The notes: a model not told the origin generated them from the letters alone. A DNA stretch of 64,000 nt from Terriglobia bacterium (GCA_963664115.2 CAXWPJ010000007.1:1-64000); one strand, 5' to 3'; numbered from the stretch's first letter, positions 5,469-59,381 are shown. Program-made: numbers and translations.

Positions 5469-5505
5469 ACTAGTTGGAGCCGACGAACACGGCGACACTA
5501 GTAGA

Positions 5506-21247: not shown

Positions 21248-21249
21248 AA

Positions 21250-42837: not shown

Positions 42838-42879
42838 ACGCCCGCGAGAATTCGAAGCTCTGACCTTCGGATTCGTAGT
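42838..42879 (-). repeat. att-like copy of the tRNA-Arg 3' half
   Basis: 39/42 identical direct repeat of 55396-55437. Confidence 0.9.
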
Positions 42880-43275
42880 TCAATCCCTAACTTTTCAGCT
42901 GTTTTAATTCCGTTCAGACTGTCTGCTAATACGTTGACAGTATGCGCCTTCTCGTCAAAGTCACACCCCATCCCTTTTTGGCTGTTTTTGGGTGTCTTCA
43001 GGCGTGTTGGTAGATGTTGTTAAATGCGGTACCCTCGGACGCAACGCGATGTTTAAGAAGAACTGAACAAGCGGATTCAATATGTTCTCAGTGAAGCCGG
43101 TGGGGACACGGATGAAGTGGCCTTTTGTCGGCCGCCTATCACTGCTTTCGGTTCTCTTTACGTTGGCACTGCGCTTGCCACTATGTTTGTACGACCTTTT
43201 AACCGGGGAGCGATCAACGCCACTCCACTGTCAACGAACATTAACGTGATTACTACAACTTATTGAGGAGTGATT

Positions 43276-44271
43276 ATGGCTAAAAAAACGAACAGACGCG
43301 AGTTTGTCAAGGTCGCTGGACTGGCGGCCTCGGGCTGGATGGCGACGGCCCGTGCGGTGAGCGGAGCAGTTCCTGAGTCGCAGGGGCAACCGGCGCCAAG
43401 AACAATGGGTGCGCGCTTTCGCGCGTTGATGAATGGGCCGGAACCGCTTATATGCCCGAACGGTTATGACACGCTTACGGCTCGTCTGATCGAGGCTCAC
43501 GGCTTCAAAGGAGTGTTTATCGGCAGCAGTGTCGCTAATCAAGCCCTGGCCGGTATGCCGGACCAGGCGATCGTCACGGTGTCCGAGATCATCGAATATG
43601 ATAGTACTGTCGCCGCGAACGTGGATATTCCTGTCCTTGCGGATCTCGATGACTTCGGCGCCACGCCTCTCACTATTTACCGCCTCGCGCAAAAGGCTGA
43701 ACGCGGTGGGATCGGCTGCGCGGCCTTCGATGACCGAATGCCCCTCAACCGCGCCACGGCCTATGCCGTTCCGGGTGTCCACCCCAGGGCTCGCATGATC
43801 GACAATATTCATGCAGCAGCCGACGCGCGTACGGACATGGTCCTGATCGTGCGCTGTCTTGCGCCCACTCCGAATAATTCGTACAACGAGATGCTGGACC
43901 GGGCCGCCGCTTACGCCGAAGCCGGCGCTGACGCTGTGTGGCTGGGATTGCCGACGGCCGAAGACTACGTACAGGCTGCCGGCATGATCACGAAGCCGCT
44001 GATGGCTACCGTCGGTGGCGCAAATTTACCGGCAACGGCGGCCGCTATGCTAGCAGCTCGAATCACCGTGGGTCAGGTCCCCAGCATGGTAGACATTGCG
44101 TTAGGCGCCATCGACAGAACACTGGTCGAATTGAAAGCGACCGGACATAGGACCGAAGCAATAAAGGGGGCGCTGAACCGGGAGATGTCGCAGAAAATTA
44201 AGCAAGTTGAAGAACTCAATGCGCTCTCACGGAAGTACAATCTTCCCAGCGCCTCGGCTCCGGAACGCTAG
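43276..44271 (+). CDS. Tat-signal isocitrate lyase/PEP mutase-family protein
   Basis: NRREFVK twin-Arg signal; YDTLTARL, GMPD, PVLADLDDFG, RAAAYAEAGAD. Confidence 0.82.
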   Translation: MAKKTNRREFVKVAGLAASGWMATARAVSGAVPESQGQPAPRTMGARFRALMNGPEPLICPNGYDTLTARLIEAHGFKGVFIGSSVANQALAGMPDQAIVTVSEIIEYDSTVAANVDIPVLADLDDFGATPLTIYRLAQKAERGGIGCAAFDDRMPLNRATAYAVPGVHPRARMIDNIHAAADARTDMVLIVRCLAPTPNNSYNEMLDRAAAYAEAGADAVWLGLPTAEDYVQAAGMITKPLMATVGGANLPATAAAMLAARITVGQVPSMVDIALGAIDRTLVELKATGHRTEAIKGALNREMSQKIKQVEELNALSRKYNLPSASAPER

Positions 44272-44311: not shown

Positions 44312-45106
44312 GGCTCTGTCAACTTATCTTCCAACGGCCGAACCGATGGCATTTGGTCGCGAGTTGATCAGGCTGCCGTCACCGCTTCCCAAGTCGCAAA
44401 AGAACGCGCCCTCAACATGCGGTGGTGAACTGCTTTTAGTCTGTGCCTGGCCAAGCGGAAAAGATTCAGAACAACACCGTGAACATAGAGGAATCGTTGA
44501 GCGTGCGCAGGCGACTTGAATTTCCTCATCTGCCGTTCGTGCTGTCGGGTAGGTTGGTGTGAGGCTTCCGCTCGATTGTTCGCGTAACGTTCAGTGTCAT
44601 GATTCGTCGAAGGCATGATCGTCCGGAGCGCTGCGCCGTGACTCTTCAACTTATCGGTGACGATTCGCAGCGGAGTCTTTCCTTGACCTTTCAAGAGTTT
44701 GCGAAAGAAGCGCTCCGCTGCACGACGGTTGCGCCGCGACTGAACGAGGATATCGATCACGTCACCGTCTTGATCCACGGCACGCCACAGGTATTGCCGT
44801 TGACCGTTGATCGTCACGAAGACCTCGTCGAGGAACCCTGTATCTCCGAGTCGACCTTGTCGTCGCTTCAGGCGCTTGGCATAGTCGAGCCCGAACTTCG
44901 CACACCACCGGCGAATTGTCTCGTAGGACACGGTGATTCCTCGCTCGGCCAGCAAATCCTCGACTTCCCGAAAGCTGAGACTGAATCGATAGTAAAGCCA
45001 GACTGCATGCCTGATGATTTCAGCGGGATAGCGGTGTCCGTGGTAGCGGGATTGGGCGCTTTTCATCCAATCAGTGTGGCAGGTATGGTCTCAAGTTGAC
45101 AATGCC
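44312..45106 (-). mobile_element. IS6-family element
   Basis: IRs GGCTCTGTCAACTT / rc GGCATTGTCAACTT; about 795 bp. Confidence 0.9.
44368..45066 (-). CDS. IS6-family transposase
   Basis: AVWLYYRFSLSFREVEDLLAERG, LDE, YLWRAVD, NNRAE. Confidence 0.93.
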   Translation of the reverse strand: MKSAQSRYHGHRYPAEIIRHAVWLYYRFSLSFREVEDLLAERGITVSYETIRRWCAKFGLDYAKRLKRRQGRLGDTGFLDEVFVTINGQRQYLWRAVDQDGDVIDILVQSRRNRRAAERFFRKLLKGQGKTPLRIVTDKLKSHGAALRTIMPSTNHDTERYANNRAEASHQPTRQHERQMRKFKSPAHAQRFLYVHGVVLNLFRLARHRLKAVHHRMLRARSFATWEAVTAA

Positions 45107-45409
45107 ATCTGGATTCCTCTGTCAAGTAGGCGTAACTCTCCTGTCTGTTTTCTCCCGCAAATATATTCAGCAGGACTGACTAGAGGTTGCGAGGTGAGTA
45201 GCTAGTCGACTGCATCCGTATCTTCGGCCTCAAAAGTGGAACGGTATTGTTCCGGGCCATGATGGAAATTTGCGCGCGGGGAGCCATCCAACAAAGACGT
45301 CTTGAGGACACCCGCGTCGCTTCAAATTCACGGCCCACGGGTTTCGACCGTTCGGTTCAGCGTTCCACGCGGTGGGAAACAACCCGCGAAGTGTGGTATG
45401 AACTAAAGG

Positions 45410-45811
45410 ATGTCAGAATTTGGAGAAGCAACTGGAGAAGTCCTTGGACAACATCTGATCGCCGACATGACGGGGTTGTCCCCTGTCCTCCTGCGTGATG
45501 GTGAGCGGATCATGCATGTTCTTAACGACGCGTTGGCGCTGGCAGGTTTTCACTCCATCAGGAGCGTGGAACATCACTTCGTCGAGCGTGGTGCGGGATT
45601 TACGGGGATGGTCCTTTTGGCGGAATCCCATGCCGCCGTTCATACCTATCCCGAGCAGGAATACCTCGCGCTCGACATCTTCGCTTGCGGCGGTATCGAT
45701 CCATCCACCGTCATGGACGCGTTGGTTCGAGAGCTGGGTCCTACATCAGTCGACGTGCGGACTCTGACACGCGCTCCTCGCGCGAGCATTCCCGCGGACA
45801 GAAAAACCTAA
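45410..45811 (+). CDS. speD: S-adenosylmethionine decarboxylase proenzyme
   Basis: GQHLIAD, LAESH self-cleavage site, HTYPE, DIFACG. Confidence 0.93.
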   Translation: MSEFGEATGEVLGQHLIADMTGLSPVLLRDGERIMHVLNDALALAGFHSIRSVEHHFVERGAGFTGMVLLAESHAAVHTYPEQEYLALDIFACGGIDPSTVMDALVRELGPTSVDVRTLTRAPRASIPADRKT

Positions 45812-45858
45812 TCCGGAGGGATATCACCCGAAAATGTTCGGGGTGAGGCCGGATTTGG
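45812..45858. terminator. Hairpin between convergent speD and DUF350 genes
   Basis: ATCCGG...TCACCCGAA-AATG-TTCGGGGTGA...CCGGAT. Confidence 0.45.
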
Positions 45859-45865
45859 CCTACCC

Positions 45866-46873
45866 TCAGAAGGTCCACACGATCAGGATCGAAGCGCCGA
45901 TGTAGCCGAACGCTTCGAGGAGGCCGGCGCCGATGTTAGGATGTTCCTGCGTCTGTTCGTCGGCAAGTTTGACGCCCGGCGCCAGTAAGATGTCGGTGAA
46001 TTTGTGGACGAAGAACAACATGATGAAGCCAAATGTGACATCGACCGCGAACAGCATCAGGCTATCGGTCCAGCCGGTGAAATCGCCGCCGACTGCCACA
46101 CTGATGACATTGCCGATTCCGATGAGCGCTCCTCCGAACGCGAGGCCTACCGCAGCGTTATCTCTCTCCAGTTCTTCAAGAAACTTGTATGGGGTCACCC
46201 ACTCGTACAGTCGTCCGGCGATCACCAATACCACCTGGGCGAGTAACCAGAAAGCCAGTAGGACTAGCATGCCCGAACCCATGGCGCTGAATGCGCTCGC
46301 CGCGGGAGAAGCTCCCCCTAATTCGCCCTCGGTGGCACGGAGAATGATCAGGCCGTTGGCGATATATACGCCGGCCTCGACGTACCCCACGCCGAGGTTG
46401 CGATCTTGGACAATCTCTTTGGTGTTGTTGAATGTAGGCAGAAGGATTTTTTCGCACATGAAGCTCGCCAGAAGCATAAGGACGATTGCAGAAAGACCGT
46501 AGATAGCGATCGTAACCACGTCTGTTCCGAGACCCTGTGATTCGCCCGAAATCGCCCCACCGAAAGCGACCAGAATGCCGAAGTAATAGCCCACCGTGGA
46601 GATTGCGAGCGCCTGATTGTCCCGGGTGAAGAGTTCCGCATTCAACTCCACACGCCGATATAGACTGGAATAAGCGAATTTCGCGATCCACAAGAGAACA
46701 AACGCTTCGAGGATATAAACGAAGGATTCGCCGATTAGATACAAATTATCTACCAGAGAAACCTGCACCAACTGCGGCGTAGAAGTTTGCGCAGAGAGTG
46801 TAAATCCCAGTCCGGCGAATACCGGAGCGGCTAAGCCAAGTACGACAGCGAGAATGGCCGGCTGTTTGCTCAT
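45866..46873 (-). CDS. Multi-repeat DUF350 membrane protein
   Basis: Repeated E...DN.A.G/A motifs between TM pairs (RDNQALA, DRNLGVG, RDNAAVG, HPNIGAG). Confidence 0.82.
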   Translation of the reverse strand: MSKQPAILAVVLGLAAPVFAGLGFTLSAQTSTPQLVQVSLVDNLYLIGESFVYILEAFVLLWIAKFAYSSLYRRVELNAELFTRDNQALAISTVGYYFGILVAFGGAISGESQGLGTDVVTIAIYGLSAIVLMLLASFMCEKILLPTFNNTKEIVQDRNLGVGYVEAGVYIANGLIILRATEGELGGASPAASAFSAMGSGMLVLLAFWLLAQVVLVIAGRLYEWVTPYKFLEELERDNAAVGLAFGGALIGIGNVISVAVGGDFTGWTDSLMLFAVDVTFGFIMLFFVHKFTDILLAPGVKLADEQTQEHPNIGAGLLEAFGYIGASILIVWTF

Positions 46874-46904
46874 AATGAAATTCCTGTTGTGTCGTCGATC
46901 GCGA

Positions 46905-47660
46905 TCATTTTCCAAAGCTGCGCCCGCCTGAGACCGCCCGACTGCTTGCTCTGGCCTGAAAACGCGCCTGTTTGGCCTGATACCTCTGAGAGAAAGATGG
47001 CCGCGTTGTGGCAGTAGCCGTACCGTTCGCGCCGAAGGTGGGCCGTCCTCCAGTCTGAGGGCCGTAGTAGGGCTGTCCGCGATTCCTCGTGCCGACGTAG
47101 GTGCCGTAATCTCCCCGATTGATCCGGTGCCCACCCAACGCGGTCCTCATGAACGCGTACTGCCCGTAAAAAATCCAGAAACCGCCGGCACCAAAATACC
47201 CGTATTGGCTGCGACCCACATGCTGATAGTAGGGCGGGTGGCTCTGGTCATAGCCGGTCAAGGTGCCATCCGCATTCTTTGCGGCCACGACCATACCTAT
47301 GGATCGCTCATAACGGTCCACCAGACGGTCGGAGATCGAATAGGTGTTCACCTGTTCATCAAACTCGGCCGCCTCGCCCTCGTCGGGGTTCTCTCCGATC
47401 GGTTCAGCGACCAGGTAGCTGCTCTTGAGCGTCATCGAGTTCCGCAGAAATCCGTCGTCGACATCGTCCACGATGATCGAATACTCGGAATATTCGGCAA
47501 GCTGTCGCGCCAACTCTGGGACCGGGTCATTGCGCGACAGCCAGCCGCCGACTACCCAGAATCCCAGCAGTACCACGACGGCGACCATCCCTGCCTGGAT
47601 CCAGCGTTCCTCGCTTGTCTGCCTGGGCATCTCTCGACGCCTTGGATCATTTCTGTTCAT
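46905..47660 (-). CDS. Single-TM protein with Gly/Tyr/Arg-rich tail ending GGRSFGK
   Basis: N-terminal TM; GGFWIFYGQYAFM; low-complexity tail. Confidence 0.75.
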   Translation of the reverse strand: MNRNDPRRREMPRQTSEERWIQAGMVAVVVLLGFWVVGGWLSRNDPVPELARQLAEYSEYSIIVDDVDDGFLRNSMTLKSSYLVAEPIGENPDEGEAAEFDEQVNTYSISDRLVDRYERSIGMVVAAKNADGTLTGYDQSHPPYYQHVGRSQYGYFGAGGFWIFYGQYAFMRTALGGHRINRGDYGTYVGTRNRGQPYYGPQTGGRPTFGANGTATATTRPSFSQRYQAKQARFQARASSRAVSGGRSFGK

Positions 47661-47668
47661 GGTAGTTC

Positions 47669-48217
47669 CTAAGCGTCCCCACTCGGCAGGATGTTTGTGA
47701 ACTGATACTCTTCCACATATTCGCCGACGACAGACTTGAAATCCCTTTCTCCGTACTGCGTGACGAACAGTACATTGTTTCCTGTATCGTCACAATAGGT
47801 CCAACTGATGAAGTCTTTACCCGGGCCCTCGGCGTTTTCATGGAACCGACCTGCGCCGCTCTCCATCAGCCTATGGCTTCGCCCATTGCGGGTCAAGGTC
47901 TTAGGTGGATCTTCATGTCGGCGGGTATGTTCAATGACTTCTTCGGAGATCTCGCTGATAGAAATGCTTTCTGTCAGCGTCCAGGTGATCCCGTCGTCAC
48001 TCGCACGTTCCAGATAGAGGACCTTGTCGGAGGTTTCGAGCACCCATTCTCTGGTCTCGACTCCAGAGTAGTCGTAGGTATTGTACCCCTTGACCTCCCA
48101 GGTCTTCATATCGTAATCGACCAGATATCCAACCTTCATAACGCCCAGTTCAAAGTCCACCTGCGTGTCGGATTCTGCATCGTCTTGGCCACGGCCAAAC
48201 CATTTTTTCCATCCCAT
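47669..48217 (-). CDS. DUF4178-like protein
   Basis: Acidic, aromatic beta-rich sequence (YDYSG...EW.L, FISWTY.D..G); operon context. Confidence 0.7.
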   Translation of the reverse strand: MGWKKWFGRGQDDAESDTQVDFELGVMKVGYLVDYDMKTWEVKGYNTYDYSGVETREWVLETSDKVLYLERASDDGITWTLTESISISEISEEVIEHTRRHEDPPKTLTRNGRSHRLMESGAGRFHENAEGPGKDFISWTYCDDTGNNVLFVTQYGERDFKSVVGEYVEEYQFTNILPSGDA

Positions 48218-48246
48218 CTTTCATCATCCCCCTAGGGAGCATCGGA

Positions 48247-49839
48247 CTACCATCGAGCGAGATCGTCCCGATAATACCCCGCCAGAGTCGGTCGTGCCAA
48301 GGTATTAGGCTCGACCTCAACACGGGTCATGTCCGCATCAAAATGTAAATTGGCCAAGAACAATTCCTTGTTCAGGTAACGCAGCCCGGGCATAAACTGA
48401 ACGCTGCCAGGATCGATCGGTGCCTCGGACCCGATATGAAAGCCCCATTCGCCGAAGGAAGGTACGTAGGCGTGAAACGAGAGCACCTCGAGATCCGCTT
48501 CTTCCATCGATTTGCCGATACACCAGTAGGCCTGGCGCGTGTAGTAAGGGCTCGTCGCCTGAGTAATTACCACTCCTCCGGGAGCCAGATGCCGACGAAT
48601 CAGCTTGTACGCTTCGACCGAGAACAGTTTTGAGATCTCTTCTTCTCGCGGATCTGGAAGATCGATTACCACCACCGAATAGGGTTCGTGTTCCCTCTGC
48701 AGAAAACTAAACCCATCTTCGTTAATCACCCGGACCCGGGGGTGGCTCAGGGCGTTCCGGTTCAGGTCGGTAAAATAGAGATTGCGCCTGGCCAGCGTCG
48801 TCATGGCCGGATCGAGGTCCACCAGCTCGATCTCGTCCACCTCGGAATACCGCAGGATTTCACGAACGGCGAGACCGTCACCGCCGCCGACGACCAGAAC
48901 CCGTGCCCGGCTATGCGAAAACGCCATGGCAGGGTGGACCAGCGCTTCGTGATACCGGTACTCGTCGACTGAGGAGAACTGTAGATGCTCGTTCAAAAAG
49001 AGCCGGGTTTCATCCTTCCAGCGCGTAACCACAATCTTCTGATATTCGGTCTCCGTGCTGAAAACCACCTGGCCTTCGTAGAGGGAATCTTCCCACCGAT
49101 CCATCAGGGGCTGGGCTTGACTTGCGAATACAGCCAACACAGTAGAAATCAGGACGCCCTGGACGACGAGTCGTGCCCGGTCTCCGGCCGATATTTGGGC
49201 CCACACGGCGAGAAGGATGGCCGAACCAGCGGCAACGTTGAGGGCGCCGGCGAGGAGTGATGTATGAAACGCCCCGAGAACCGGCAAACAAAAGAATGGG
49301 AAGAGAACAGCGGCGACCAGAGCGCCAACGTAATCGACCGAAAGCACATTCGACAGGATCGTCCGCAACGATCCGTGTCTTCGCAGGATCCGTGTGAGGA
49401 GCGGGATCTCCAGTCCGATGAGCGTGCCGATGATCAGGATGATGACCAGCATCAGGTATTTGTAGACGCTGGTGTAGGCGTTCGCGAGGTACAGAGCGGG
49501 AACTGTCAGACCTCCGAACAACCCGAGCCACAGTTCCAACGCCACCAACCGCCGGATCAAGTTCCCGTGAACGGCCCTCGAGATCCACGAGCCCAGGCCC
49601 ATCGCGAAAAGAAAGAATCCGATCGTCAGCGAGTACTGTTGGACGCTGTTGCCCAGGAAATACGACGAGATACTTCCGACCAGTAACTCGTAGACGATTC
49701 CGCACGCCGCGGCGACGAAAATCGATGCGAGTATCAGGAACAGACCCAGCCGCGACAGCCTTTCTTCTCCCAACCCGACATCGTCGAACTCTAGTTCGTT
49801 GGGGGTAAGATTGGTGTCAGGTGTCTTGCTGATGCTCAT
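48247..49839 (-). CDS. speE: Membrane-bound polyamine aminopropyltransferase (spermidine synthase-like)
   Basis: About 7 TMs (CGIVYEL, GLEIPLL) followed by LQFSSVDEYRYHE, GGGDG, VDLD, IDLPDP, PSFGEWG. Confidence 0.92.
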   Translation of the reverse strand: MSISKTPDTNLTPNELEFDDVGLGEERLSRLGLFLILASIFVAAACGIVYELLVGSISSYFLGNSVQQYSLTIGFFLFAMGLGSWISRAVHGNLIRRLVALELWLGLFGGLTVPALYLANAYTSVYKYLMLVIILIIGTLIGLEIPLLTRILRRHGSLRTILSNVLSVDYVGALVAAVLFPFFCLPVLGAFHTSLLAGALNVAAGSAILLAVWAQISAGDRARLVVQGVLISTVLAVFASQAQPLMDRWEDSLYEGQVVFSTETEYQKIVVTRWKDETRLFLNEHLQFSSVDEYRYHEALVHPAMAFSHSRARVLVVGGGDGLAVREILRYSEVDEIELVDLDPAMTTLARRNLYFTDLNRNALSHPRVRVINEDGFSFLQREHEPYSVVVIDLPDPREEEISKLFSVEAYKLIRRHLAPGGVVITQATSPYYTRQAYWCIGKSMEEADLEVLSFHAYVPSFGEWGFHIGSEAPIDPGSVQFMPGLRYLNKELFLANLHFDADMTRVEVEPNTLARPTLAGYYRDDLARW

Positions 49840-51542
49840 TGAACTGCGCCCGTCTCTCCGGATAGACCCTTGATCGATGATTCGAATGTCCTGCCGAGGC
49901 GCTCCAGGACCTGTTCGGCCGCCCGGATGCCGGAAAAACAGGCTTCTTCGAACAGCGGCAGTCCTGTCGTGTCACACGAGGCGAAATACACGTTTCCGAA
50001 AGGCTCCCTCCGAGTGACGCTTTCTGGGCCCCATATGAGTCCCGGCCTCGGCCGGATCATGGCGTGACCCCACCGGTAAACGTCGATGCGGTCTACGACA
50101 CGCTCCAGGTCCGGATGGGCCAACAGTAGGTCCCGCATGATCACGTTGACCCAGTACGGATGTTCTTCTTCAAGGAGCTTTCTACGAGCAAGGTCGATGT
50201 CCTCGACGAACGGGAGATAATAAACCAGGATCGATGGGTTGTCTCTGTAGACCTGTCGGGTTTGATGATCAGCGACAATGTAGCCTAGGGATTGGCTGTC
50301 GCGGAGTACATTGTCCCACGCGATCGAGACTTCGGCGTTTGTGGGCAACTCGCTCACGTGGATACTGGCGGTCAGCCATGGGCTGTAATCACAGGATTCG
50401 ATCGCTTCTACCTGGGGCCGTGGCAATCCATCGACCAGGAAAGGCGCGGTGTGGAGCTTGGAGGCATGGATCACGGTTCGGGCCGAAATAGTGCGATATG
50501 TCTCACTCGGTGTATCGAAGTAGCCGACCCGAACGCCGGGATTGTCGTTATCGATGTTGTCGATGCGAAGCACCGTGCATCCGAGCCGGTATTGCGAGTC
50601 GTCCAGGTCTTGGGCTAAGCGTTGTACCAGAAACCCGTTTCCCGCGGGCCACGTCAACGTATCCGAAGGGTACTGGTCCCACAGCCGCTCGTCGTAGTAT
50701 CGGCAGGCGAAATAGTGAATGCCGGCCCAGGCCGACACGGTTGCCATCATGCTCCCGTAATCGTCCCGGCAAGCATAGTTGATCATCCAATCCAACCGTG
50801 GCGAATTCCATCCTTTGGAGCGGACGTAGGTTTCCATCGAAATCTTGTCGAGATCACGAACCCGGGAGTCCGTGGTGCTGTAGCTGAGAGGGAGTGCGAA
50901 TGCGCGCCGGCCGTCAAAACCGCGGTAAAGCGTCCAGGTCAGCATGTCGTCCTCAAAGGCAAGTATGGCTTCGCGGTCCTGGGTTGAGGCCCCGGCGAGC
51001 AGATCCCATTCGATCCATCTTCCGTCCATGAAGACACGTTCGGTGGGCCATCGCAGGATGTGTTGTTCGGGAATCCTCGGCCGTCCGGCCTCATCGTAGC
51101 CTTCGATTATGCCCAGGTCGGACAGGACTTCTTTGACGCAATCCGCTTCCGCGGGCGGAATATTGATGTAGTGTGCCGCCCAGGGGAATTCCGCGCCCTC
51201 TGCGCTTCCGGACGCGGAGGTGCCTCCAAGCCAGGGCTCCAGTTCGAGCAGGACAAAGTTGTCCAGTCCGGCCTTCATCAGCTTCCAGGCTGCGCACAGT
51301 CCAGAAACGCCACCTCCGACGATGGCGACGTCGTAGGTATGAGCATCAGGCTCGGGAAATCGATCGCGAGGGTGGGGTTCGCGCAGAAGATGCCCCGCCT
51401 GCTGGCCCCCCCCCACGATTTGCCCCGGAACTTTGAAGGTCCTCGGAGGCGGAGTGCCTGAATTCCAGCACGAAGGCACGACCGCCAGAAGGCTGCCGGT
51501 CGCGGAGAGGCGAAGGAACCGACGGCGTGTAAAGAACGACAT
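49836..51542 (-). CDS. Tat-lipoprotein FAD-dependent oxidoreductase (amine oxidase-like)
   Basis: TRRRFL plus lipobox-like VPSC; IVGGGVSG, RWGHAM, LFEEA. Confidence 0.85.
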   Translation of the reverse strand: MSFFTRRRFLRLSATGSLLAVVPSCWNSGTPPPRTFKVPGQIVGGGQQAGHLLREPHPRDRFPEPDAHTYDVAIVGGGVSGLCAAWKLMKAGLDNFVLLELEPWLGGTSASGSAEGAEFPWAAHYINIPPAEADCVKEVLSDLGIIEGYDEAGRPRIPEQHILRWPTERVFMDGRWIEWDLLAGASTQDREAILAFEDDMLTWTLYRGFDGRRAFALPLSYSTTDSRVRDLDKISMETYVRSKGWNSPRLDWMINYACRDDYGSMMATVSAWAGIHYFACRYYDERLWDQYPSDTLTWPAGNGFLVQRLAQDLDDSQYRLGCTVLRIDNIDNDNPGVRVGYFDTPSETYRTISARTVIHASKLHTAPFLVDGLPRPQVEAIESCDYSPWLTASIHVSELPTNAEVSIAWDNVLRDSQSLGYIVADHQTRQVYRDNPSILVYYLPFVEDIDLARRKLLEEEHPYWVNVIMRDLLLAHPDLERVVDRIDVYRWGHAMIRPRPGLIWGPESVTRREPFGNVYFASCDTTGLPLFEEACFSGIRAAEQVLERLGRTFESSIKGLSGETGAVQ

Positions 51543-51555
51543 TGCTGGATGATAC

Positions 51556-52257
51556 TCAGATGCCCATTTTCTTCTTGAGCTCAGCCAGCGAGTCGCTGGT
51601 CTCGGCCGAGCTGGGCACCGCAAGGGTTCTGTCAATCTCCTGGTCCAGGGTGACGCTCGCGTCTGTCATGTCTCCGTAAGCCTCGGCAAGCGACTCCTCC
51701 TCTATCACTTTGTCCTTCATCCTTTCCAGTAGTGCAATCGTACTGGAGGAGTCGGCGTTCGACATCTGCTGGTTGATTTTCCGCATCGATGTCGCCGTCT
51801 TGGCACGGGCTCTCAAGGTCACCAACTCGGTCTCGAAGCGGCTGATGGTTTCCTTCAGCGTTCCCACCTTCGCCTGGAGCTGGTCCCCCATGGATTTTTG
51901 CTGCTCGTAATCCTTCTTTAAGGAACCTGAGCGTTGGAGAGCCTCCTCCTTCTTGGTCAAGGCTTCAGTTGCCAGACGTTCCGCGTCAGCTTCGGGCAGA
52001 TCCCCGCTCTTCATTTTCTGGAGAAGAAGCATCGCTTTTCTTTCGTAATCCTTCGCAAGCTTTTTCTGGTCGTCCGAGTCTTTCTTGAAACGAATTGCGA
52101 TCGCTTTAACTTGCGCCAGACTCTGCATAGAGCCCTGCAGGTCTTTCTTCAGGTCGCGAATTCCCTGCTCGCTCATCTTGATCGGGTCTTCGAGCTTATC
52201 CGCGACCGAATGTGCCTGGGACTGCACGTTTTTGAAAATTCTTTGAAAAAAACTCAT
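51556..52257 (-). CDS. PspA/IM30 (bacterial ESCRT-III-like) protein
   Basis: MSFFQRI...LEDPIKMSEQ, coiled coil, ERMKDKV, LAELK. Confidence 0.93.
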   Translation of the reverse strand: MSFFQRIFKNVQSQAHSVADKLEDPIKMSEQGIRDLKKDLQGSMQSLAQVKAIAIRFKKDSDDQKKLAKDYERKAMLLLQKMKSGDLPEADAERLATEALTKKEEALQRSGSLKKDYEQQKSMGDQLQAKVGTLKETISRFETELVTLRARAKTATSMRKINQQMSNADSSSTIALLERMKDKVIEEESLAEAYGDMTDASVTLDQEIDRTLAVPSSAETSDSLAELKKKMGI

Positions 52258-52673
52258 TTGTCAGCTCCCCCCGACTGTCGGTGACTAAATTTCAGCAACT
52301 CTGGGCCGTTTTCGGCCAGGGCAAGCTCCAGCGACCGGATGGAGCCTTCCAACTCGTTACAATCCAGGTTTTCCAGTTGCAAGGTATCGCGGAAAAGGAC
52401 ACGGTTACCTTCTTCGTCATCGAGCACAAACGCTCCATGTACCATGGTTCGGTTCATCTGGAGGAGGCGTTTGAAGAAATCTCCAGCATCCTCGGGGACA
52501 TCCATGATGAGTTGTTCGAGGATGACGATTGGGGGTTCGCAGTCAATGATCAGGTTATGAATCCCATTCTCCTCATCCTCCACCACGATCAACTCTTCGG
52601 CTTCATCCTCGCTGACGATCTTGAGATCGATATCGAGCAGATAGCCCTTCACCAAGTCTAGGTTCTCGGACAT
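52254..52673 (-). CDS. YbjN/CesT-like chaperone-fold protein
   Basis: LLQMNRTMVHGAFVLD...FRDTLQLENLD. Confidence 0.78.
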   Translation of the reverse strand: MSENLDLVKGYLLDIDLKIVSEDEAEELIVVEDEENGIHNLIIDCEPPIVILEQLIMDVPEDAGDFFKRLLQMNRTMVHGAFVLDDEEGNRVLFRDTLQLENLDCNELEGSIRSLELALAENGPELLKFSHRQSGGADK

Positions 52674-52675
52674 GT

Positions 52676-53065
52676 TTACTTCTCCTGTCTGTTTGTCTCG
52701 CTCTGGGACCGCTTCCGTAGCCGCTCGTAAGCACCGTTCAACCGTTGCGTCAGTTCATCGGCTATTTTTAGTTTCTCGAGATCTTTCGAATGCAGATCCG
52801 GGTGGTATTTCCGTAACAGCCGTATCCATGCCTTCCGGACCGTGGCAAGGCTGGAACCATAGGGCACCTCCAGGTTGGAATAGAGTTCGGCCAACTCCGG
52901 ATCGATGCGCTGGGCGTTAGATTCGATATTTCTGCTACCGTGGCCCGGCCCGTGGGCCCGAGTCTGCCTTTGGCGTCCACGTGCCCGATCAGCGTGAATC
53001 CGTCCGTTCGAGCCAGCGTGGATCTGGGCTCGAATGAGGCGGATCACGCGGGTTGCCAGTTCCAA
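52676..53065 (-). CDS. Small J-domain protein
   Basis: LYSNLEV...VRKAW...KYHPD...LNGAYE. Confidence 0.85.
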   Translation of the reverse strand: MELATRVIRLIRAQIHAGSNGRIHADRARGRQRQTRAHGPGHGSRNIESNAQRIDPELAELYSNLEVPYGSSLATVRKAWIRLLRKYHPDLHSKDLEKLKIADELTQRLNGAYERLRKRSQSETNRQEK

Positions 53066-53194
53066 TCAATCAGCTCCCTCGAAGACAGGTTTTCAATGAC
53101 GACATTGCGCGCTCATCAGAATCATAACTCAATAGGTTATATTTGGCGGTATTGATAAGCTCGCGTTCGTCAGTGAAGGGATGACTCGATCACC

Positions 53195-54253
53195 ATGCTC
53201 AGGTTGATTATGGAATGGTTCCGGCGCTTCAGGCCGGAAAGACACGGCGAAATCCGTAAGGTAATCCTCTTGTTTTCCGCCCTGACCGCCCTGGGTGCGG
53301 TCGGTTATAGACTTTTCGAGGGTGCTGCCGATCCCGAGCTGTCCTGGAACGATGCCATTTGGTGGTCGATCGTTACGATGACGACCGTGGGATACGGGGA
53401 CTATTTTCCAACGACCGCCTACGGTCGCTACCTGGTGGCGATTCCACTGATGTTTGTCGGCATCGGCATCCTTGGCTACTTGCTCTCGGTGATGGCAACT
53501 GCGTTGATTGAGTCGAGGTCAAAGGAGTTGAAAGGCATGACAGATCTCCACGTTGAATCCCATGTGCTCGTAGTGAATTTTCAAAGTGAAGGCCGGAATC
53601 TAGAGATTGTCAAGGAGCTGCGGGAGGACTCCAAGACAAAGGACCTTGCAATAGTGTTGGTCGATGACCACCTCGACGAGCTGCCGCCCGAACTGGGGAA
53701 ACTGGGTGTCCGTTTTGTGAAGGGCAACCCATCGAGGGAAAGTGTCCTGCGGCGCGCATGCGTCGACAAGGCGCGTTATGCGATCGTTCTTGCCTCGGAA
53801 GTGGACCCATCGCGCGCCGATGACCATACTCTTGCCGCGGCCCTTACAATCGAATCGATCAACCCCAACATCTTCACGGTCGCCGAATGCCTCGACCCTG
53901 AGCGTGTGGGACTGATGCGCCGATCGGGATGCGACAGCGTGGTCTGCGTGTCCGGTCTCGCATCGTCCTTCTTGGTTCAGGAGGTTTGCGATCCTGGCAT
54001 GCATGCCGTCGTCAACGAACTGATGTCAAACAGATTTGGTCAACAAGTCTACATCGTTCCGGTTGAACAAATGCAAAACTGGGAATTTTCTGAGCTGCAG
54101 GCACATCTTTCACGAAAAGGGTACCTTGTATTGGGAATACAACGCGGCAGCGAGGCACTGCTCAACCCAGGGAATGCGTACAAGATCGAAGCGAGCGATC
54201 ACGTCATCTGCATGGGGCCACACAGGCCCGCTCCGGTTCGGATCTCGAGCTAG
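53195..54253 (+). CDS. Two-TM potassium channel with RCK/TrkA domain
   Basis: TMTTVGYGD selectivity filter; RCK_N and RCK_C. Confidence 0.93.
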   Translation: MLRLIMEWFRRFRPERHGEIRKVILLFSALTALGAVGYRLFEGAADPELSWNDAIWWSIVTMTTVGYGDYFPTTAYGRYLVAIPLMFVGIGILGYLLSVMATALIESRSKELKGMTDLHVESHVLVVNFQSEGRNLEIVKELREDSKTKDLAIVLVDDHLDELPPELGKLGVRFVKGNPSRESVLRRACVDKARYAIVLASEVDPSRADDHTLAAALTIESINPNIFTVAECLDPERVGLMRRSGCDSVVCVSGLASSFLVQEVCDPGMHAVVNELMSNRFGQQVYIVPVEQMQNWEFSELQAHLSRKGYLVLGIQRGSEALLNPGNAYKIEASDHVICMGPHRPAPVRISS

Positions 54254-55017
54254 CGATCTTTGGTCGGTGACTGCGCCTTAGAACGTTTCCAGAATGCGGA
54301 TAGTCCTAACACCAGAACGCCCACTGAGATTGCTCCACAAACAACACCCCAGAACCAATACGGCAAGAATAGTAGATCTGCGAGCTGTGCAACGTCGGAG
54401 GGCATAGCTCCGGCACCAGTCATCGCGGTCTTGGTGAAGAGATAGTCCGCGCGCGAGAAAACACTGAGTGCCATCTGTACGGCTAGGACTGCGACAGTAA
54501 ACTGAGCGATTCCGGCACCAAAGCGTCTACCCACATAGAACAGGCTTCCACCCACTGCTCCGACGAAAGCAAACCCAAAGACGTTGCGTATGACCAGGAC
54601 GCAGGCAGCAATCATTAATGCTCCGAATGCCATGAGCGCGATCTGTGCAAGGCGCGCGCGGGCGGACAACCAAAACAAGAATGCTCCTGCAACTGCCGGT
54701 CCAATGAGCCCGCCCGCCGCTGTGGCCGCACGGCTCAATCGGCCCGCGGCGCCTCCTATCATGGCTACCCCGGACCCGTCAGCGTAGAGTCGGAAAGAAT
54801 CGAACTCCAGGCCAACCAACATTGCCGTCAGTCCGTGGCCCATTTCATGGGCCACGGTTGACAAGAGAAGAATCGGATAACCGACAACTCCACCAAAGGG
54901 AAGCAATGGCGCCAAGATGCCGACGGCTGTGGCCGCAGTCAACGCAGCTCTCGCACGCGCTCGGTCTGAGGATCCCTGGCGAATTCGTAAGGAATCGAAA
55001 AGTCGCTCGAAATTCAT
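54250..55017 (-). CDS. M50B-like intramembrane metallopeptidase
   Basis: HEMGH within a TM, AGGLIGP, SD motif; multi-TM. Confidence 0.82.
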   Translation of the reverse strand: MNFERLFDSLRIRQGSSDRARARAALTAATAVGILAPLLPFGGVVGYPILLLSTVAHEMGHGLTAMLVGLEFDSFRLYADGSGVAMIGGAAGRLSRAATAAGGLIGPAVAGAFLFWLSARARLAQIALMAFGALMIAACVLVIRNVFGFAFVGAVGGSLFYVGRRFGAGIAQFTVAVLAVQMALSVFSRADYLFTKTAMTGAGAMPSDVAQLADLLFLPYWFWGVVCGAISVGVLVLGLSAFWKRSKAQSPTKDR

Positions 55018-55156
55018 ATCGCTCGAGAGGGAATCGTTCCTGACAACTGAAACCGTCGCGTGCCTAACGCGTGCGGCTGAAGAACTGCGACCTCATGCAC
55101 TCGCCCAACTTTGAACACTCCACGAGCCCCCGCAACAGTCAGAGTCTTCCCTCGAC

Positions 55157-55315
55157 CTATAATAGACAGTTGACCCCTCGCCGTTCACCTGCCAGTTGTT
55201 GAAGCTTGAGGTTGAGCTTATAGGCGACGACCTTCGCCTTACGGAGCAGTTCTGTCGTTGAAAAGGATGGGTTCAAGGCGTCCCGCTGCAGTTCGAGGAC
55301 TATTGGGTCAGGCAT
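55157..55315 (-). pseudogene. AbiTii-domain N-terminal remnant
   Basis: IVLELQRDAL......ELLRKAKVVAYKLNL resembles AbiTii N-termini as recalled; truncated. Confidence 0.6.
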
Positions 55316-55394
55316 AGCGTGGCAACCTATGGCAACCAGAGGCGAGAAAACGAAAAAGGCCGCCACTTTGGCAGCCTAACTTCTTTGTTTTCAA

Positions 55395-55468
<74 letters not shown>

Positions 55469-55527
55469 GAAACAGGATTTGGACTACGTCTGGCCGCTCT
55501 ACCGCATGACAGGGCTGGGGTCAGGGG

Positions 55528-56106
55528 TCACAGGATACGCAACAAGCGTTTCGACTCCTCCAGCAACCGATCCAAATCAAGAGGTTTGGGTAAGAAACAG
55601 TCCGCTCCCGCCTGAAGAATCTTCGATTCAACTTCCGGTTGTCCACTGATCGCAATGATCGCGGTGCGGTTAGCTGGATTTTCCTTGATTCGACGGCAGA
55701 CTTCGAGCCCATCCACCCCGGGGATGAGTATATCGAGGACGATCAGGTCCGGATGCGAGCGCCCGATTTCAATCAAGGCCGTAATACCATCTGAGGCGGC
55801 GTTGACCTCGTATGCATCCTCCCGCTCGAAAAAGGTCGTCAGGACCTTGACGATACTGTCTTCGTCTTCAACGATCAGCACCTTGAGCTTTTCTGCCGTG
55901 AGTGCCGCGGGGACAGGTATCTGGTGCTTTCTCAGGAAAGCCAGCAAGTCCTCCCGGCTGATGCGGCGATGTCCCCCGGGTGTCCGATAGGAATTGAGCA
56001 AGTCCTGCTCAATCCAGTTGATCATAGACCGGGGATTGACCTGCAGTAACTTGCTGACTTCGTGGGTCGTAAAGATGTCTTTGTTCGGGTTAGTACTTGC
56101 AGCCAT
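55528..56106 (-). CDS. Response regulator with N-terminal excisionase-type HTH
   Basis: TTHEVSKLL..RTPGGHRRI; VLIVEDE, LIVLD, PKP. Confidence 0.9.
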   Translation of the reverse strand: MAASTNPNKDIFTTHEVSKLLQVNPRSMINWIEQDLLNSYRTPGGHRRISREDLLAFLRKHQIPVPAALTAEKLKVLIVEDEDSIVKVLTTFFEREDAYEVNAASDGITALIEIGRSHPDLIVLDILIPGVDGLEVCRRIKENPANRTAIIAISGQPEVESKILQAGADCFLPKPLDLDRLLEESKRLLRIL

Positions 56107-56308
56107 CCAGCGTTCCTGCCGCGCCAGGTGGGGCCGGGGACGCGTTGCCTCGTTCGATACCAATCGAATTCGACCCGGCGGAGCCGAATTTCCATTTTCG
56201 CGCCGGTTCCGAACCCGCATCTTCTACCAGTGGTCCCCGTCACCCTCCCCACATCGACTATCGAGGACCGTATGCGAGCCGGTATAACGTAACATACTGA
56301 CATTCCTT

Positions 56309-56803
56309 ATGGGAATCGCTATTCGGGATTGGCAGCCTTCGGATTTCGAGCGGATTACTTCGCTTTGGTTGTCCGCTTATGCGCTTGTCTCCCTCCCGGA
56401 CGCGCCACTGCGAAGCGACGCAAACCGGGTGCTGACCGAGTGGCTGGACGATCGATTTCGGGACCGGCGGTCCCTGGGTTATGTCGGAGAACGGGACGGC
56501 GATTTCGCTGGATTCGTACTGGGACGCATTGGCGAGTGGGAGTCGGATCCCCCCATTCTCAAGCGGCGCCGGATTGGACTGATCGACGTGGTGTACGTCC
56601 TGGAAGTGCATCGCAGGTACGGGGTCGCAAGCGCTTTGGTGCAATTTGTCATCGAACGCGCCCGGGCACGCGGTGCGACCGCGCTTGAGACAAGCTTTGA
56701 GACTGCTAACGAACCGGCCACCAGGCTCTGGTGGAGTTTGGGTTTCAAGCCCTGGATCGAGCGTGCCTACCGTCCGATCAGATCCTCAAGCTCAAACGAC
56801 TGA
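56309..56803 (+). CDS. GNAT acetyltransferase
   Basis: VYVLEVHRRYGVA, NEPA....LGF. Confidence 0.88.
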   Translation: MGIAIRDWQPSDFERITSLWLSAYALVSLPDAPLRSDANRVLTEWLDDRFRDRRSLGYVGERDGDFAGFVLGRIGEWESDPPILKRRRIGLIDVVYVLEVHRRYGVASALVQFVIERARARGATALETSFETANEPATRLWWSLGFKPWIERAYRPIRSSSSND

Positions 56804-56930
56804 GATGGAACGCATGGCATCTAAAAGGCTTCGAAAGCTAAGCTGTGGGTCCAGCCCTGTCGCACCTGATTGCTAAACTACCCCGACGTCGGCCGAACGC
56901 GATGATGCCCAAGGGCCTGAAAGTTGGAGT

Positions 56931-57734
56931 ATGACGGTGAAAATAGTCACCTGCATGAAACTGGTTCCCGATCCCACCGCGCGCCTCCTCATAAACGAAA
57001 GTAAAAGCTGGATCCAAGAGACAGACCTGAGCTTCGTCCTCAACGAAGCGGACAGCTATGCTCTCGAAGAAGCGCTGGCACTCAAAGAAAAACACGGCGG
57101 GGAAGTGATAGCCCTTTCCGTGGGACAGGAGTCGACCTTACGGATACTTCGCCAGGGACTGGCCACCGGCGCAGATCGGGCAATTTTTCTTTCTGACAAG
57201 CGGTTTCGAGGTTCCGACGAGTTTGTGACGGCACAGATCATCGCGCGGGCTGTGGACAAAGACGGAGGAGCCGACCTGGTGCTCACGGGTGTGCAATCCG
57301 ATGATTTGGGCACGGGTACGACGGGAGTGATGGTGGCTGAGTTACTCGGATGGCCGCACGCCAGTGTCGTCATCAGCGTGGACGCGGCACCGGAAGAGAG
57401 GCGCGTTCGGGTCAGACGGGAGCTCGAAGGTGGCATAACCGAAGAGGTCGAATTGGAATCCCCCTGTGTTTTGACGCTGCAGTACGGGATCAATCAGCCA
57501 CGGTATCCATCGCTGAAGGGAATAATGGCGGCCAAAAAAAAGGAACTTCGGAAATGGGACCTGGAAGATCTTGAGCTGGGAGACGATGCGGTGGGTGTGT
57601 CCGGAAGTATGGTTGAGGTCGCCGCTGTCTTCGTCCCTGAACGAACCGGCGATGTAGAGATCATCTCCGGCAGCCCCGCGGAAGCGGCTGCCCGGCTGGT
57701 TGAAAAATTGAGAAAAGAAGCAAAAGCCTTGTAG
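56931..57734 (+). CDS. etfB: Electron transfer flavoprotein beta subunit
   Basis: KLVPD, YALEEAL, GVQSDD, PRYPSLKGIMAAKKK. Confidence 0.95.
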   Translation: MTVKIVTCMKLVPDPTARLLINESKSWIQETDLSFVLNEADSYALEEALALKEKHGGEVIALSVGQESTLRILRQGLATGADRAIFLSDKRFRGSDEFVTAQIIARAVDKDGGADLVLTGVQSDDLGTGTTGVMVAELLGWPHASVVISVDAAPEERRVRVRRELEGGITEEVELESPCVLTLQYGINQPRYPSLKGIMAAKKKELRKWDLEDLELGDDAVGVSGSMVEVAAVFVPERTGDVEIISGSPAEAAARLVEKLRKEAKAL

Positions 57735-57744
57735 GTGTGCTCTT

Positions 57745-58767
57745 GTGATATTGGCACTGACGGAACACGAAAACCAAAACTTCAAGCCCCTGACGCGTGA
57801 ATTACTGGGCATGGCCCGGCGCCTCGGGCAGGAACTCGAGGAACCGGTGGCGGCGGTGGTCCTCGGATCGGGGGTGGACGGACTGGTTCCAGAGCTCGGG
57901 GCCCTGGGTATCGATCGTGTATTCACCGTGGATGATCCCGCGCTTTCCGCCTATAGCCCGGATGCCTACCTCGCTGCGCTGGGGGCCGTGACCGACGCCC
58001 TGACGAGGGGACCGGACGCGGGGCCAAAAGGGATTCCGAACAGTCGAAGACCCTATCTCGTGATGGCGGGGCATGCGGGTATCGGACCGGATTTGCTTCC
58101 GCGAATGGCGGCGCAGTTGAGGCGGCCCCTGGTGGCGGCCTGCGTGGATATTGAGAAGCAGGGCGAACGGTTGTTTATGACCCGCCAGATTTTTAACGCG
58201 AAGATGCACATGAGGGTATCGCTCCGCGGGGAGGCGCCGTATTTTGCGACGATAGCGCCGGGTGCGTTTCCGGTCTCCGAAGTCGCTGAAGAAGACAGGG
58301 TCCGGCCGGAGACGGTTCCGATCGAACTGGGGGAAGTGCATATCCGCCAGAGGGTGATCGGCAGGGAAGAGACCGCCACAGGCGCACTCGACTTTGGGTC
58401 GGCTTCCACCATAGTTTCCGGAGGCCGGGGACTCAAGGCTCCTGAGAATGTGGCGCTTGTCGTCGAATTAGCTCAGGCATTGGGGGGCGCGGTCGGGGCG
58501 TCCCGGCCTGTCGTCGACGCGGGATGGTTGCCACGTGAACACCAGATCGGCAGTTCCGGTCAGACAGTGTCTCCAAAGCTGTACTTCGCCATCGGCATTT
58601 CCGGAGCGATTCAGCATCTGGTGGGCATGCAGACCGCGCAATGCATCGTTGCGATCAACAAAGATGCGGATGCTCCAATTTTCAAGGTAGCGCAGTACGG
58701 CATCGTGGGCGATCTTTTCGAGATCGTTCCGGAAATCACAAAGATAATCAACGACCTGAACGCCTAG
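57745..58767 (+). CDS. etfA: Electron transfer flavoprotein alpha subunit
   Basis: SGGRG, GASRPVVD, GISGAIQH, AINKD. Confidence 0.96.
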   Translation: MILALTEHENQNFKPLTRELLGMARRLGQELEEPVAAVVLGSGVDGLVPELGALGIDRVFTVDDPALSAYSPDAYLAALGAVTDALTRGPDAGPKGIPNSRRPYLVMAGHAGIGPDLLPRMAAQLRRPLVAACVDIEKQGERLFMTRQIFNAKMHMRVSLRGEAPYFATIAPGAFPVSEVAEEDRVRPETVPIELGEVHIRQRVIGREETATGALDFGSASTIVSGGRGLKAPENVALVVELAQALGGAVGASRPVVDAGWLPREHQIGSSGQTVSPKLYFAIGISGAIQHLVGMQTAQCIVAINKDADAPIFKVAQYGIVGDLFEIVPEITKIINDLNA

Positions 58768-58899
58768 CAGTCGGGCAGCACTCGAACGTTTGATTCGGAT
58801 CAGCCGATTTGAATTTATTTGCATCCTTTCGAATAGAAACACCTAGAATCGACCGTGCAGGGACTTCAAATTAGAGTCGTCGTCAGGGGGAAGCGCAGT

Positions 58900-59301
58900 A
58901 TGCAGAACGCTTCGTTGTTGATCGGGCTCTGCCTGATCCTGGCGTTGGCACCGAACGGCTGGAAGGACTGTTTCGAGAAGCGGTTCCGATATTACCAGGG
59001 GATGCGTCTCCAAGCCGCGGTAATGATCGCCAGCAAGGCGGCCGCAGAGGCTGTTGCGGTTGCGAATGCGACTAATCTGGAAGCGGCGACAACGGCACAC
59101 GGAATCATTGGAAAAGGCTCGCGGCATCTGTCATTCTCAGTTTCGTGGGAAAGCTCCGGATGGGTCTTTTCGCTTCAAGACAGAGGAGTTAGGCAGTCGA
59201 CATATCGGCTCGACCGGAGGGAAAACGATCCCATCCGAGTGGACCAGATACCGGACCAGCGAAGCGCCTGCCTGGAGAAATACGGCAGGACGTTAATTTA
59301 A
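58900..59301 (+). CDS. Hypothetical secreted or membrane protein
   Basis: Hydrophobic N-terminus; no recognised motif. Confidence 0.4.
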   Translation: MQNASLLIGLCLILALAPNGWKDCFEKRFRYYQGMRLQAAVMIASKAAAEAVAVANATNLEAATTAHGIIGKGSRHLSFSVSWESSGWVFSLQDRGVRQSTYRLDRRENDPIRVDQIPDQRSACLEKYGRTLI

Positions 59302-59381
59302 TTGACTTTCATTGGGAAGGACGAGTAGCCTTCTATCAGTGAGTGGTGTCTAAAAGAAAGATTTCCTCCACCATCCTACTC

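Follow-up and report, generated by a model that had tools for sequence, protein, structure and literature searches.

We examined a stretch of 64,000 nucleotides from a Terriglobia bacterium (GCA_963664115.2 CAXWPJ010000007.1:1-64000; hereafter the window, meaning the whole stretch, with positions counted from its first letter) and describe a cassette of 11 genes within it. The cassette consists of an operon of 8 minus-strand genes (53065 to 45866, with intergenic gaps of -4 to 31 nt), together with speD, a K+ channel gene, and the gene for an M50B-like peptidase. On balance, and with some reserve, we favor the reading that the membrane aminopropyltransferase of this operon aminopropylates the C-terminal lysine of the anchored tail protein encoded in the same operon, outside the inner membrane. 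Central to this reading is a switch in the last residue of the tail protein, which follows the type of polyamine enzyme encoded beside it. Profile searches with Pfam and NCBIfam were used to assign the operon families, and they bore out the genes, the order, and the families listed in a preliminary description of this DNA.

No Pfam family matches the tail protein above its cut-off, and its nearest atlas clusters are unnamed lipoproteins. Among 123 homologues, 121 end in Gly-Lys (GK), and the terminal lysine is retained across partners of 46 to ~360 residues. A lipobox-like motif, defined by a loose pattern, is present in 66 of the 123; the window copy has no cysteine. Around 80 transferase loci (the best 80 of 584, mostly from Acidobacteriota), GK-ending open reading frames (ORFs) account for 71 of 3,202 same-strand nearby ORFs vs. 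11 of 6,755 others. As a separate matter of annotation, the K-ending partner in SPFH-type operons (L032-L110) lies just upstream of the transferase gene and is only ~46-62 aa long (e.g., ...GGK, ...YHK); genes of this size would often escape annotation.

The switch emerges when these loci are set against a control set of YgiC-type ligase loci under an identical rule: the ending of an ORF within 1.5 kb upstream of the enzyme gene. Four of the 80 transferase loci had too little upstream DNA and were set aside, leaving 76. Ligase loci came from five taxonomic draws, mostly of Proteobacteria; one fragment was excluded first, and then 7 of 60 loci were dropped (bifunctional-size, incomplete, or short), leaving 53. 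From the 151 genomes of the Gammaproteobacteria draw came 8 matches, including 3 of bifunctional size, and a metagenome scan for the ligase returned just enterobacterial ygiC, 89-100% identical, and was not used. An upstream GK-ending ORF was found in 56/76 transferase loci vs. 0/53 ligase loci, a GG-ending ORF in 1/76 vs. 24/53, and any K-ending ORF in 66/76 vs. 9/53. With nine HK endings and two more distant K-tails added to the GK endings, the transferase count becomes 67/76. Five of the nine remaining loci were tested, and in all five genomes a GK- or HK-ending gene stands behind a DUF4178 gene elsewhere. An ORF ending in HR at locus L091 was considered as an exception and rejected: that genome, too, has an HK-ending gene behind DUF4178. 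When the Gly/Ser-rich tail protein was picked by an internal motif instead, it was present in 42 of 57 ligase loci, ending in G (21), S (15), E (4), or T (2), and never in K; YgiB and YjfM of Escherichia coli both end in GG.

A ligase requires a free carboxylate and an aminopropyltransferase requires an amine; either enzyme would give a similar tail a polyamine-like tip. Homology between the tail protein and DUF1190 was not found (hhalign probability 14.5), nor was homology to three Bacteroidota ligase partners (probability 0.4).

The predicted structure of the transferase (model pLDDT 91.5) combines a six-helix half of a major facilitator superfamily (MFS) transporter (26-219), a seventh helix (218-240), and a SpeE-fold domain (243-528). 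In fold searches, the N-terminal part (26-219) matched the MFS protein OxlT (Z 18.6, root-mean-square deviation (rmsd) 2.7, 180 aligned), and the catalytic domain matched 1uir (Z 35.4, rmsd 2.9, 277 aligned). MFS halves begin and finish in the cytoplasm; the seventh helix would therefore take the catalytic domain outside. Lys and Arg are enriched at the N-terminus and in loops 2-3, 4-5, and 6-7 across 81 sequences, in agreement with an outward-facing domain, and the partners point outward likewise: the oxidase bears a twin-arginine (RR) motif, and distant tail-protein homologues bear the lipobox-like motifs. Thus, on the model, the active site likely faces outward, outside the inner membrane.

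The enzyme has the traits of the aminopropyltransferase superfamily, namely the GGGDG donor motif, the D-x-x-D pair (D393, D396), the SpeE fold, and a linked speD. The SpeE motifs GGGDG (G318-G322), D343, D375, D393, D396, and YHE are invariant in 68 rows. It differs from canonical SpeE in being a 530-aa membrane protein rather than a soluble protein of ~290 aa, and it scores under the SpeE cut-offs (133 bits vs. 249.55 for TIGR00417; 163 vs. 260 for NF002010). It also has a family-specific Arg295, where SpeE of Thermus thermophilus has Ile; this residue could bind a terminal carboxylate. The earlier contention that the module does not perform ordinary spermidine synthesis fits the predicted topology and what Li et al. 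2019 reportedly found. Glu284, mostly Gly or Ser in homologues, was considered as damage in this copy and rejected, being common to 4 of 5 relatives checked.

Two further operon products could act on the mark and on PspA. By a loose rule, RR precedes the FAD motif in 51 of 52 oxidase homologues, and R6 and R7 are invariant in a 40-row alignment whose rows had been cut at RR. SpdH aligns to oxidase residues 40-545 (Z 26.6, rmsd 3.8, 454 aligned), tied with several other flavoenzymes, and the N-terminal piece of the oxidase alone does not single out SpdH. According to passages of PMC11107197, SpdH itself bears a twin-arginine translocation (Tat) signal, and its cleavage of spermine yields spermidine and 3-aminopropanal. 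By analogy, it is plausible that the oxidase serves as an eraser of the aminopropyl mark. The J-domain protein keeps its HPD motif in 19 of 19 homologues. In chloroplasts, as passages of PMC13051332 have it, Hsp70 and CDJ2 appear to take apart Vipp1 polymers, and the J-protein of the cassette may likewise recycle PspA. When a profile of the PspA N-terminus was scored on 223 proteins, the top eight were all J-proteins (best E 0.002).

The proposed mechanism runs as follows. SpeD, assigned by profile, would make decarboxylated S-adenosylmethionine (SAM) in the cytoplasm. A candidate transferase homodimer would form a 12-helix carrier that passes the donor out and methylthioadenosine back, with the seventh helix placing the catalytic domain outside, as fold and charge bias suggest. 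The acceptor would be the epsilon-amine of the C-terminal lysine on the Gly/Ser/Arg-rich tail, giving a polyamine-tipped tail, as the co-variation of ending and enzyme suggests; in YgiC/YjfC operons, a comparable product would come from the ligation of spermidine to a tail whose last residue is Gly or some residue other than lysine. The twin-arginine flavin oxidase might remove the mark, as SpdH acts on spermine; this is the weakest step. DUF350 and DUF4178 would read the state of the tail and couple it to membrane remodelling by PspA and CesT, and the J-protein would recruit DnaK to dismantle PspA polymers. We put forward the widest form of this scheme tentatively, as one possibility: a reversible and widespread extracytoplasmic modification, which a self-feeding half-transporter/aminopropyltransferase writes as aminopropyl-lysine on the C-terminal tail and a Tat oxidase erases, and in which the state of the tip controls an ESCRT-III protein with its own J-protein/DnaK disassembly, the YgiC/YjfC operons having converged on the same tip by ligation.

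Several observations weigh against the proposal or parts of it. The association of K-tail with enzyme type gives a Fisher p of 7e-20, a value that overstates its strength because the taxonomy of both samples is skewed and kin are not independent. In locus L259, speD, a ligase gene, and a GG-tail gene diverge from the gene of a membrane transferase that lacks an adjacent K-tail gene; there, the transferase may make a free polyamine. Both enzyme types thus lie in one locus (G737:C65:152000-168000, positions 6120-9846). Transferase loci L056, L057, L084, and L099 are without a tail gene. D396, which we take to bind the far amine of putrescine in SpeE, is invariant although a peptide lysine has no far amine, and we know of no precedent for an enzyme that uses decarboxylated SAM outside the cytoplasm. 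Regarding the accessory steps, amine oxidases, phytoene desaturase, and protoporphyrinogen oxidase tie as fold matches of the oxidase (Z 26-29), and the oxidase gene is missing from 11 of 20 loci in the phylum Latescibacterota that keep tail and transferase. The likeness between the J-protein and the N-terminal helix of PspA is weak (hhalign probability 24).

Some of these observations can be read in favor of a small-molecule product: a polyamine made from a compound such as cadaverine, free lysine, or agmatine, either at the membrane or outside it, that neutralises the cell surface, with the K-tail serving as a binding or sorting motif for DUF350 and DUF4178. The retained putrescine-binding aspartates of SpeE, the small-molecule synthases found as closest folds, and the pairing of transferase and ligase without a K-tail in L259 all suit such a product, which the oxidase could just degrade, as SpdH does. 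We nonetheless consider this account unlikely, if deserving of real weight, since a mere binding motif should not change from K to G or S exactly with the change of enzyme. MFS-aminopropyltransferase fusions, in the 2019 work of Li and colleagues, reportedly do not complement a speE mutant, and their hosts are said to be without spermidine.

A second alternative takes the invariant lysine on an outward-facing anchored protein as a site of covalent anchoring: the lysine, or its aminopropylated form, would be turned by the oxidase into an aldehyde or joined by a transpeptidase to peptidoglycan or lipid, giving the inner membrane a tether. The C-terminal lysine of Braun's lipoprotein (Lpp), which gives a covalent tether, is a precedent, and a twin-arginine amine oxidase sits in the same operon. 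The Pfam scan found no transpeptidase gene in the cassette, and the 11 Latescibacterota loci without the oxidase also speak against this account, which we hold to be improbable. It is a shade less probable still that the acceptor is some other envelope molecule, such as a lipid head group, lipid A, or a cationic peptide of foreign origin, with the tail protein serving only as a scaffold. Such a substrate would accord with an active site at the membrane surface and with the "aminopropylation of other substrates" that, in passages of Ravi 2024 (PMC11237479), is suggested to alter membrane structure, but it leaves both the switch between K and G/S and the invariant Arg295 without an explanation.

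Aminopropylation of the tail, as we propose it, attaches to an operon class that is already published, so that the novelty claimed in the preliminary description was overstated. The core module is the second CesT-PspA group of Ravi 2024 (PMC11237479), in passages of which PspA is proposed to monitor polyamines or the aminopropylation of other substrates; no substrate of aminopropylation is named there, and passages of PMC10948618 restate the operon context. The example given for that group, in the context of Shewanella oneidensis SO_3765, comprises the Ctha_1186 lipoprotein, YjfL with 8 transmembrane segments (8TM), a 7TM spermine synthase, CesT, PspA, DUF4178, and RHH. The cassette shares with it the CesT-PspA pair, a 7-helix aminopropyltransferase fusion, a tandem DUF350 protein, DUF4178, and an anchored protein with a low-complexity tail. 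It differs in adding a J-domain protein, a twin-arginine flavin oxidase, speD, a K+ channel, and M50B, in lacking RHH, in its gene order, and in moving as a cassette apparently flanked by insertion sequences (ISs). In the passages of Ravi 2024, speD and the oxidase are found in variants that have no CesT-PspA pair, and the channel is found in the ligase group; the terms DnaJ, J-domain, and M50 do not occur in the portion of its main text covered, nor DnaJ, Amino_oxidase, or Peptidase_M50 in one of its supplement files.

In E. coli yjfIJKLMC and ygiBC (the latter with a DUF1190 lipoprotein), too, a polyamine-transferring enzyme stands next to a PspA/CesT-like pair, DUF350, and an anchored protein whose tail is rich in Gly, Ser, and Arg, but that enzyme is an ATP-grasp peptide-spermidine ligase rather than an aminopropyltransferase, and the tails end in GG or another non-lysine residue. 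Li and colleagues reportedly left the acceptor of their fusions unknown. Those MFS-aminopropyltransferase fusions with AdoMetDC (Li et al. 2019) are of the same type (NF002956, NF037959) and occur with speD and DUF350; unlike that work, we propose a candidate acceptor and an outward-facing active site. Passages of PMC11762307 credit YgiC with peptide-spermidine ligase activity and state that its physiological substrate is unknown. HSP70B-CDJ2 acting on VIPP1 in chloroplasts resembles the cassette in pairing a J-domain protein with a PspA/VIPP1 polymer, but here the link is one of gene order only, and the 129-aa J-protein is likened to CDJ2 through the J domain alone. Relative to canonical SpeE and SpeD, the catalytic fold and motifs are the same, and the cassette enzyme differs as a membrane fusion, predicted to face outward, with Arg295. 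In the DUF350 and YgiC/YjfC literature, the tail was not proposed as an aminopropylation substrate in titles or abstract openings among the matches listed, and the open literature on aminopropylation and C-terminal lysine in bacteria gave no match; both searches lay outside subscription papers. The operon class itself is published, its mechanism unsolved; the tail switch that tracks the enzyme type, together with the active site predicted to face outward, makes the matter directly testable.

Membrane aminopropyltransferases of this type are widespread, with an estimated ~7,200 stored stretches in the genome collection, and the cassette genes co-occur widely in other genomes, in keeping with their earlier description as a module. 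The same eight genes, in the same order, are found in L031 (Ca. Latescibacterota) and in 9 of 20 loci chosen from that phylum and drawn from both score classes. The transferase, DUF350, and the GK-tail gene are present in every one of the 20, and PspA and CesT in 19; the J-protein occurs in 9 (always with the oxidase), the channel in 3, speD in 1, and M50B and IS6 in none. In 101 of 151 genomes of the phylum, the tail family has just a single copy. In a quick tree of 54 transferases, the window's family is sister to a nine-row Latescibacterota clade (SH-aLRT 99); the root was placed for drawing only, so the tree does no more than suggest a donor lineage. Outside this group the scaffold changes: among 36 wider transferase loci with enough flank, DUF4178 is present in 34, DUF350 in 33, the oxidase in 30, and speD in 26, with an SPFH protein in 22 and the window's PspA type in 1. 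The scaffold is therefore exchangeable and the polyamine-tail part constant.

The cassette speD is the sole PF02675 match in the genome, and none was found in 4/4 tested relatives without the cassette (genomes 95-99% complete). It follows that the cassette carries its own aminopropyl donor enzyme, as had been proposed. In 5/5 operon-bearing Latescibacterota genomes, speD is kept outside the operon; it would have been added to the cassette because the recipient lineage had none. The genome also has four other Spermine_synth matches, in reading frames of 842, 821, 1062, and 228 aa, three of which (the 821-1062 aa frames) are on G000:C2, C1, and C6 (L313, L314).

Within its own lineage, the cassette is patchy: a full-length transferase occurs in 9 of 24 family genomes. 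Across the nine cassette-bearing relatives, block gene order is kept at 81-96% nucleotide identity, and likeness to the window ends near 45305-45390 and 54970-55175. Eight of the nine loci have the full set of eleven, counting a broken M50B gene in G003 and a DUF350 gene that tblastn splits in G004; in G023 the cassette is cut by a contig end and the CesT match is split. The K+ channel and M50B are, we infer, accessory to the module. An extra gene of ~365 aa without a Pfam match lies between pspA and the oxidase gene in G007 and G017 (L024 10661-11773, L025 8277-9371), and loose ends at window position 51555 in two runs represent other variants at the pspA-oxidase junction.

The preliminary description placed the module between attachment (att) repeats and had it travel as a tRNA island. 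The repeat is real (39/42 identical; match E 4e-11, next best match in the genome E 0.02), but the two copies also enclose the PEP-mutase-family gene and an IS6 transposase, and the island itself did not survive comparison with relatives. Of the genome's 26 PF00589 integrase matches, none lies between the repeats (42.8-55.4 kb), in a search confined to that integrase family. No tRNA is present in any of the nine relatives' cassette loci, and in 4/4 cassette-bearing relatives checked (G001, G003, G004, G013) the cassette is away from the tRNA-Arg site. Other DNA occupies that site: ~2 kb in G003, ~7 kb in G013, ~10 kb in G001, ~20 kb in G002 (with an integrase in this cargo ~3 kb from the tRNA), and ~32 kb in G004. 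The different cargo in relatives and the absence of such an integrase between the window repeats mark the site as a hotspot that caught the cassette once. The 42-nt tRNA repeat is an att-like scar of this hotspot, not the cassette's own border, and the mobile unit is a cassette of ~10 kb, apparently IS-flanked, not a tRNA island.

Mobility itself, also part of the preliminary description, is supported by the relatives' loci, the transposases around them, and a near-identical copy in two genera. In 6 of 7 relatives' loci with scanned flank ORFs, the cassette contains or adjoins transposase genes. The window has IS6 on a single side, G004 has IS6 pieces on both, and G006 and G016 have a 1.4-kb repeat on both. 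Between congeners, cassette segments are 84-96% identical vs. 67-82% for flanking genes. G013 and G006/G016, to which the classification tool assigns different genera, share an 11,004-bp copy at 99.7% identity, and their flanks differ. The cassette has recently been transferred and has already moved between genera. This 99.7%-identical block extends ~1.4 kb beyond M50B, where it takes in the first part of a Ser/Thr kinase gene (L021 14000-15366, L022, L023). Summed contig depth in four runs was mostly greater over the cassette than over its flanks, a sum that includes other organisms and gives no copy number. No joint between the two att copies was found in the contigs of these runs, which drop rare variants, so that excision is still possible. 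Plasmid records matching the transferase number 135, mostly Ralstonia megaplasmids.

A mobile, patchy cassette with a K+ channel and an intramembrane protease could suggest an anti-phage or anti-toxin defence system on a tRNA island, as previously advanced, but this is very improbable: PADLOC gave only partial domain matches to 2 of 12 proteins and no whole-protein match, no phage record matched the transferase at E 1e-20, the 38 chosen flank and insert ORFs were by Pfam mostly transposases with no defence family, the tail family is single-copy in Latescibacterota as for a core envelope operon, and the 20 loci read in that phylum have no IS6 or tRNA.

Table 1. Features of the cassette and its surroundings in the window.
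Feature	Position	Strand	Details
Degenerate copy of 3' part of tRNA-Arg(ACG), 42 nt	42838..42879	-	39/42 identical to 55396-55437
PEP-mutase/isocitrate-lyase-family gene	43270..44271	+	PF13714 E 1.5e-28
IS6-family transposase, short terminal inverted repeats, left of cassette	44368..45066	-	PF13610 E 1.9e-35; ends contain TGTCAACTT
speD, S-adenosylmethionine decarboxylase (aminopropyl donor)	45410..45811	+	TIGR03330 101 bits vs. cut-off 75.65; ESH self-cleavage motif at residue 72
Tandem DUF350 (YjfL-type) membrane protein, 335 aa	45866..46873	-	PF03994 in two stretches, E 3e-47; 9 hydrophobic segments including an N-terminal one
Membrane-anchored protein, Gly/Ser/Arg-rich tail ending Gly-Lys (...GGRSFGK); proposed acceptor	46905..47660	-	One hydrophobic segment at 23-41
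DUF4178 protein	47669..48217	-	PF13785 E 3.5e-16
Membrane aminopropyltransferase, 530 aa	48247..49839	-	NF002956 602.6 bits vs. cut-off 472; NF037959 over cut-off
Flavin amine-oxidase-fold protein, twin-arginine signal, 568 aa	49836..51542	-	PF01593 (Amino_oxidase) E 8.7e-18; N-terminal TRRRFL
PspA/IM30 (ESCRT-III superfamily) protein	51556..52257	-	PF04012 E 1e-41; under PspA and LiaH equivalog cut-offs
CesT/Tir-like chaperone (CesT_Tir_1)	52254..52673	-	PF22550 E 7e-50
Small J-domain protein with HPD, 129 aa	52676..53065	-	PF00226 33.1 bits vs. cut-off 27.8
Two-helix K+ channel with RCK domain	53195..54253	+	PF07885, PF02254; TVGYG filter at residue 64
M50B-like intramembrane metallopeptidase	54250..55017	-	PF13398 E 4e-38; HEMGH motif at residue 57
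tRNA-Arg(ACG), integration target in this lineage	55395..55468	-	ARAGORN

Coordinates and strands agree with the earlier account of speD as convergent on the operon and the RCK channel gene as divergent from it; the M50 peptidase gene, described there as divergent too, lies on the minus strand and converges on the channel gene. The CesT and pspA genes are adjacent, with a 4-nt overlap. Probable starts are at 46873 for DUF350 and 51542 for the oxidase, the longer ORFs extending into neighbouring genes. The guanine-plus-cytosine content of the island region is 0.561 vs. 0.569 and 0.570 in the flanks and gives no island signal. At the right border, the assembly is backed by a contig from an independent run that covers 54643-55428 without differences. 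The PEP-mutase-family gene is not in the cassette loci of the nine relatives and is separate cargo; its product opens with a twin-arginine-like TNRREFVK, unusual for the family, and has three paralogues in the genome.

Elsewhere in the window, a tyrosine integrase gene (370 aa, PF00589 at 20663-21133) ends beside tRNA-Lys(TTT) at 21250-21322, and the region 20135-21322 forms a second, integrase-bearing island border. At 2819-7149, two long identical repeats 2,678 nt apart lie under ORFs of ~510 aa, with 93-nt and 60-nt repeats between them; this is probably a duplicated mobile element. Sequence words of the flank 55400-60000 were recovered at a fraction of 0.43 in seawater-labelled and 0.37 in sponge-metagenome-labelled runs, a lead only as to habitat, and RNA runs held just 0.09-0.12 of the flank-query words.

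The enzyme-matched tail switch names a candidate substrate for both the membrane aminopropyltransferases and E. coli YgiC, and a switch of the partner's last residue makes the question of the acceptor directly testable. The cassette is useful in this regard because donor enzyme, writer, candidate eraser, candidate substrate, and scaffold sit within ~10 kb. A dedicated J-protein would offer one answer to how PspA polymers are recycled without an AAA ATPase, a question left open in passages of Ravi 2024 (PMC11237479). If true, the proposal would add a protein modification to those of the bacterial envelope, one that ties polyamine chemistry to PspA/ESCRT-III.

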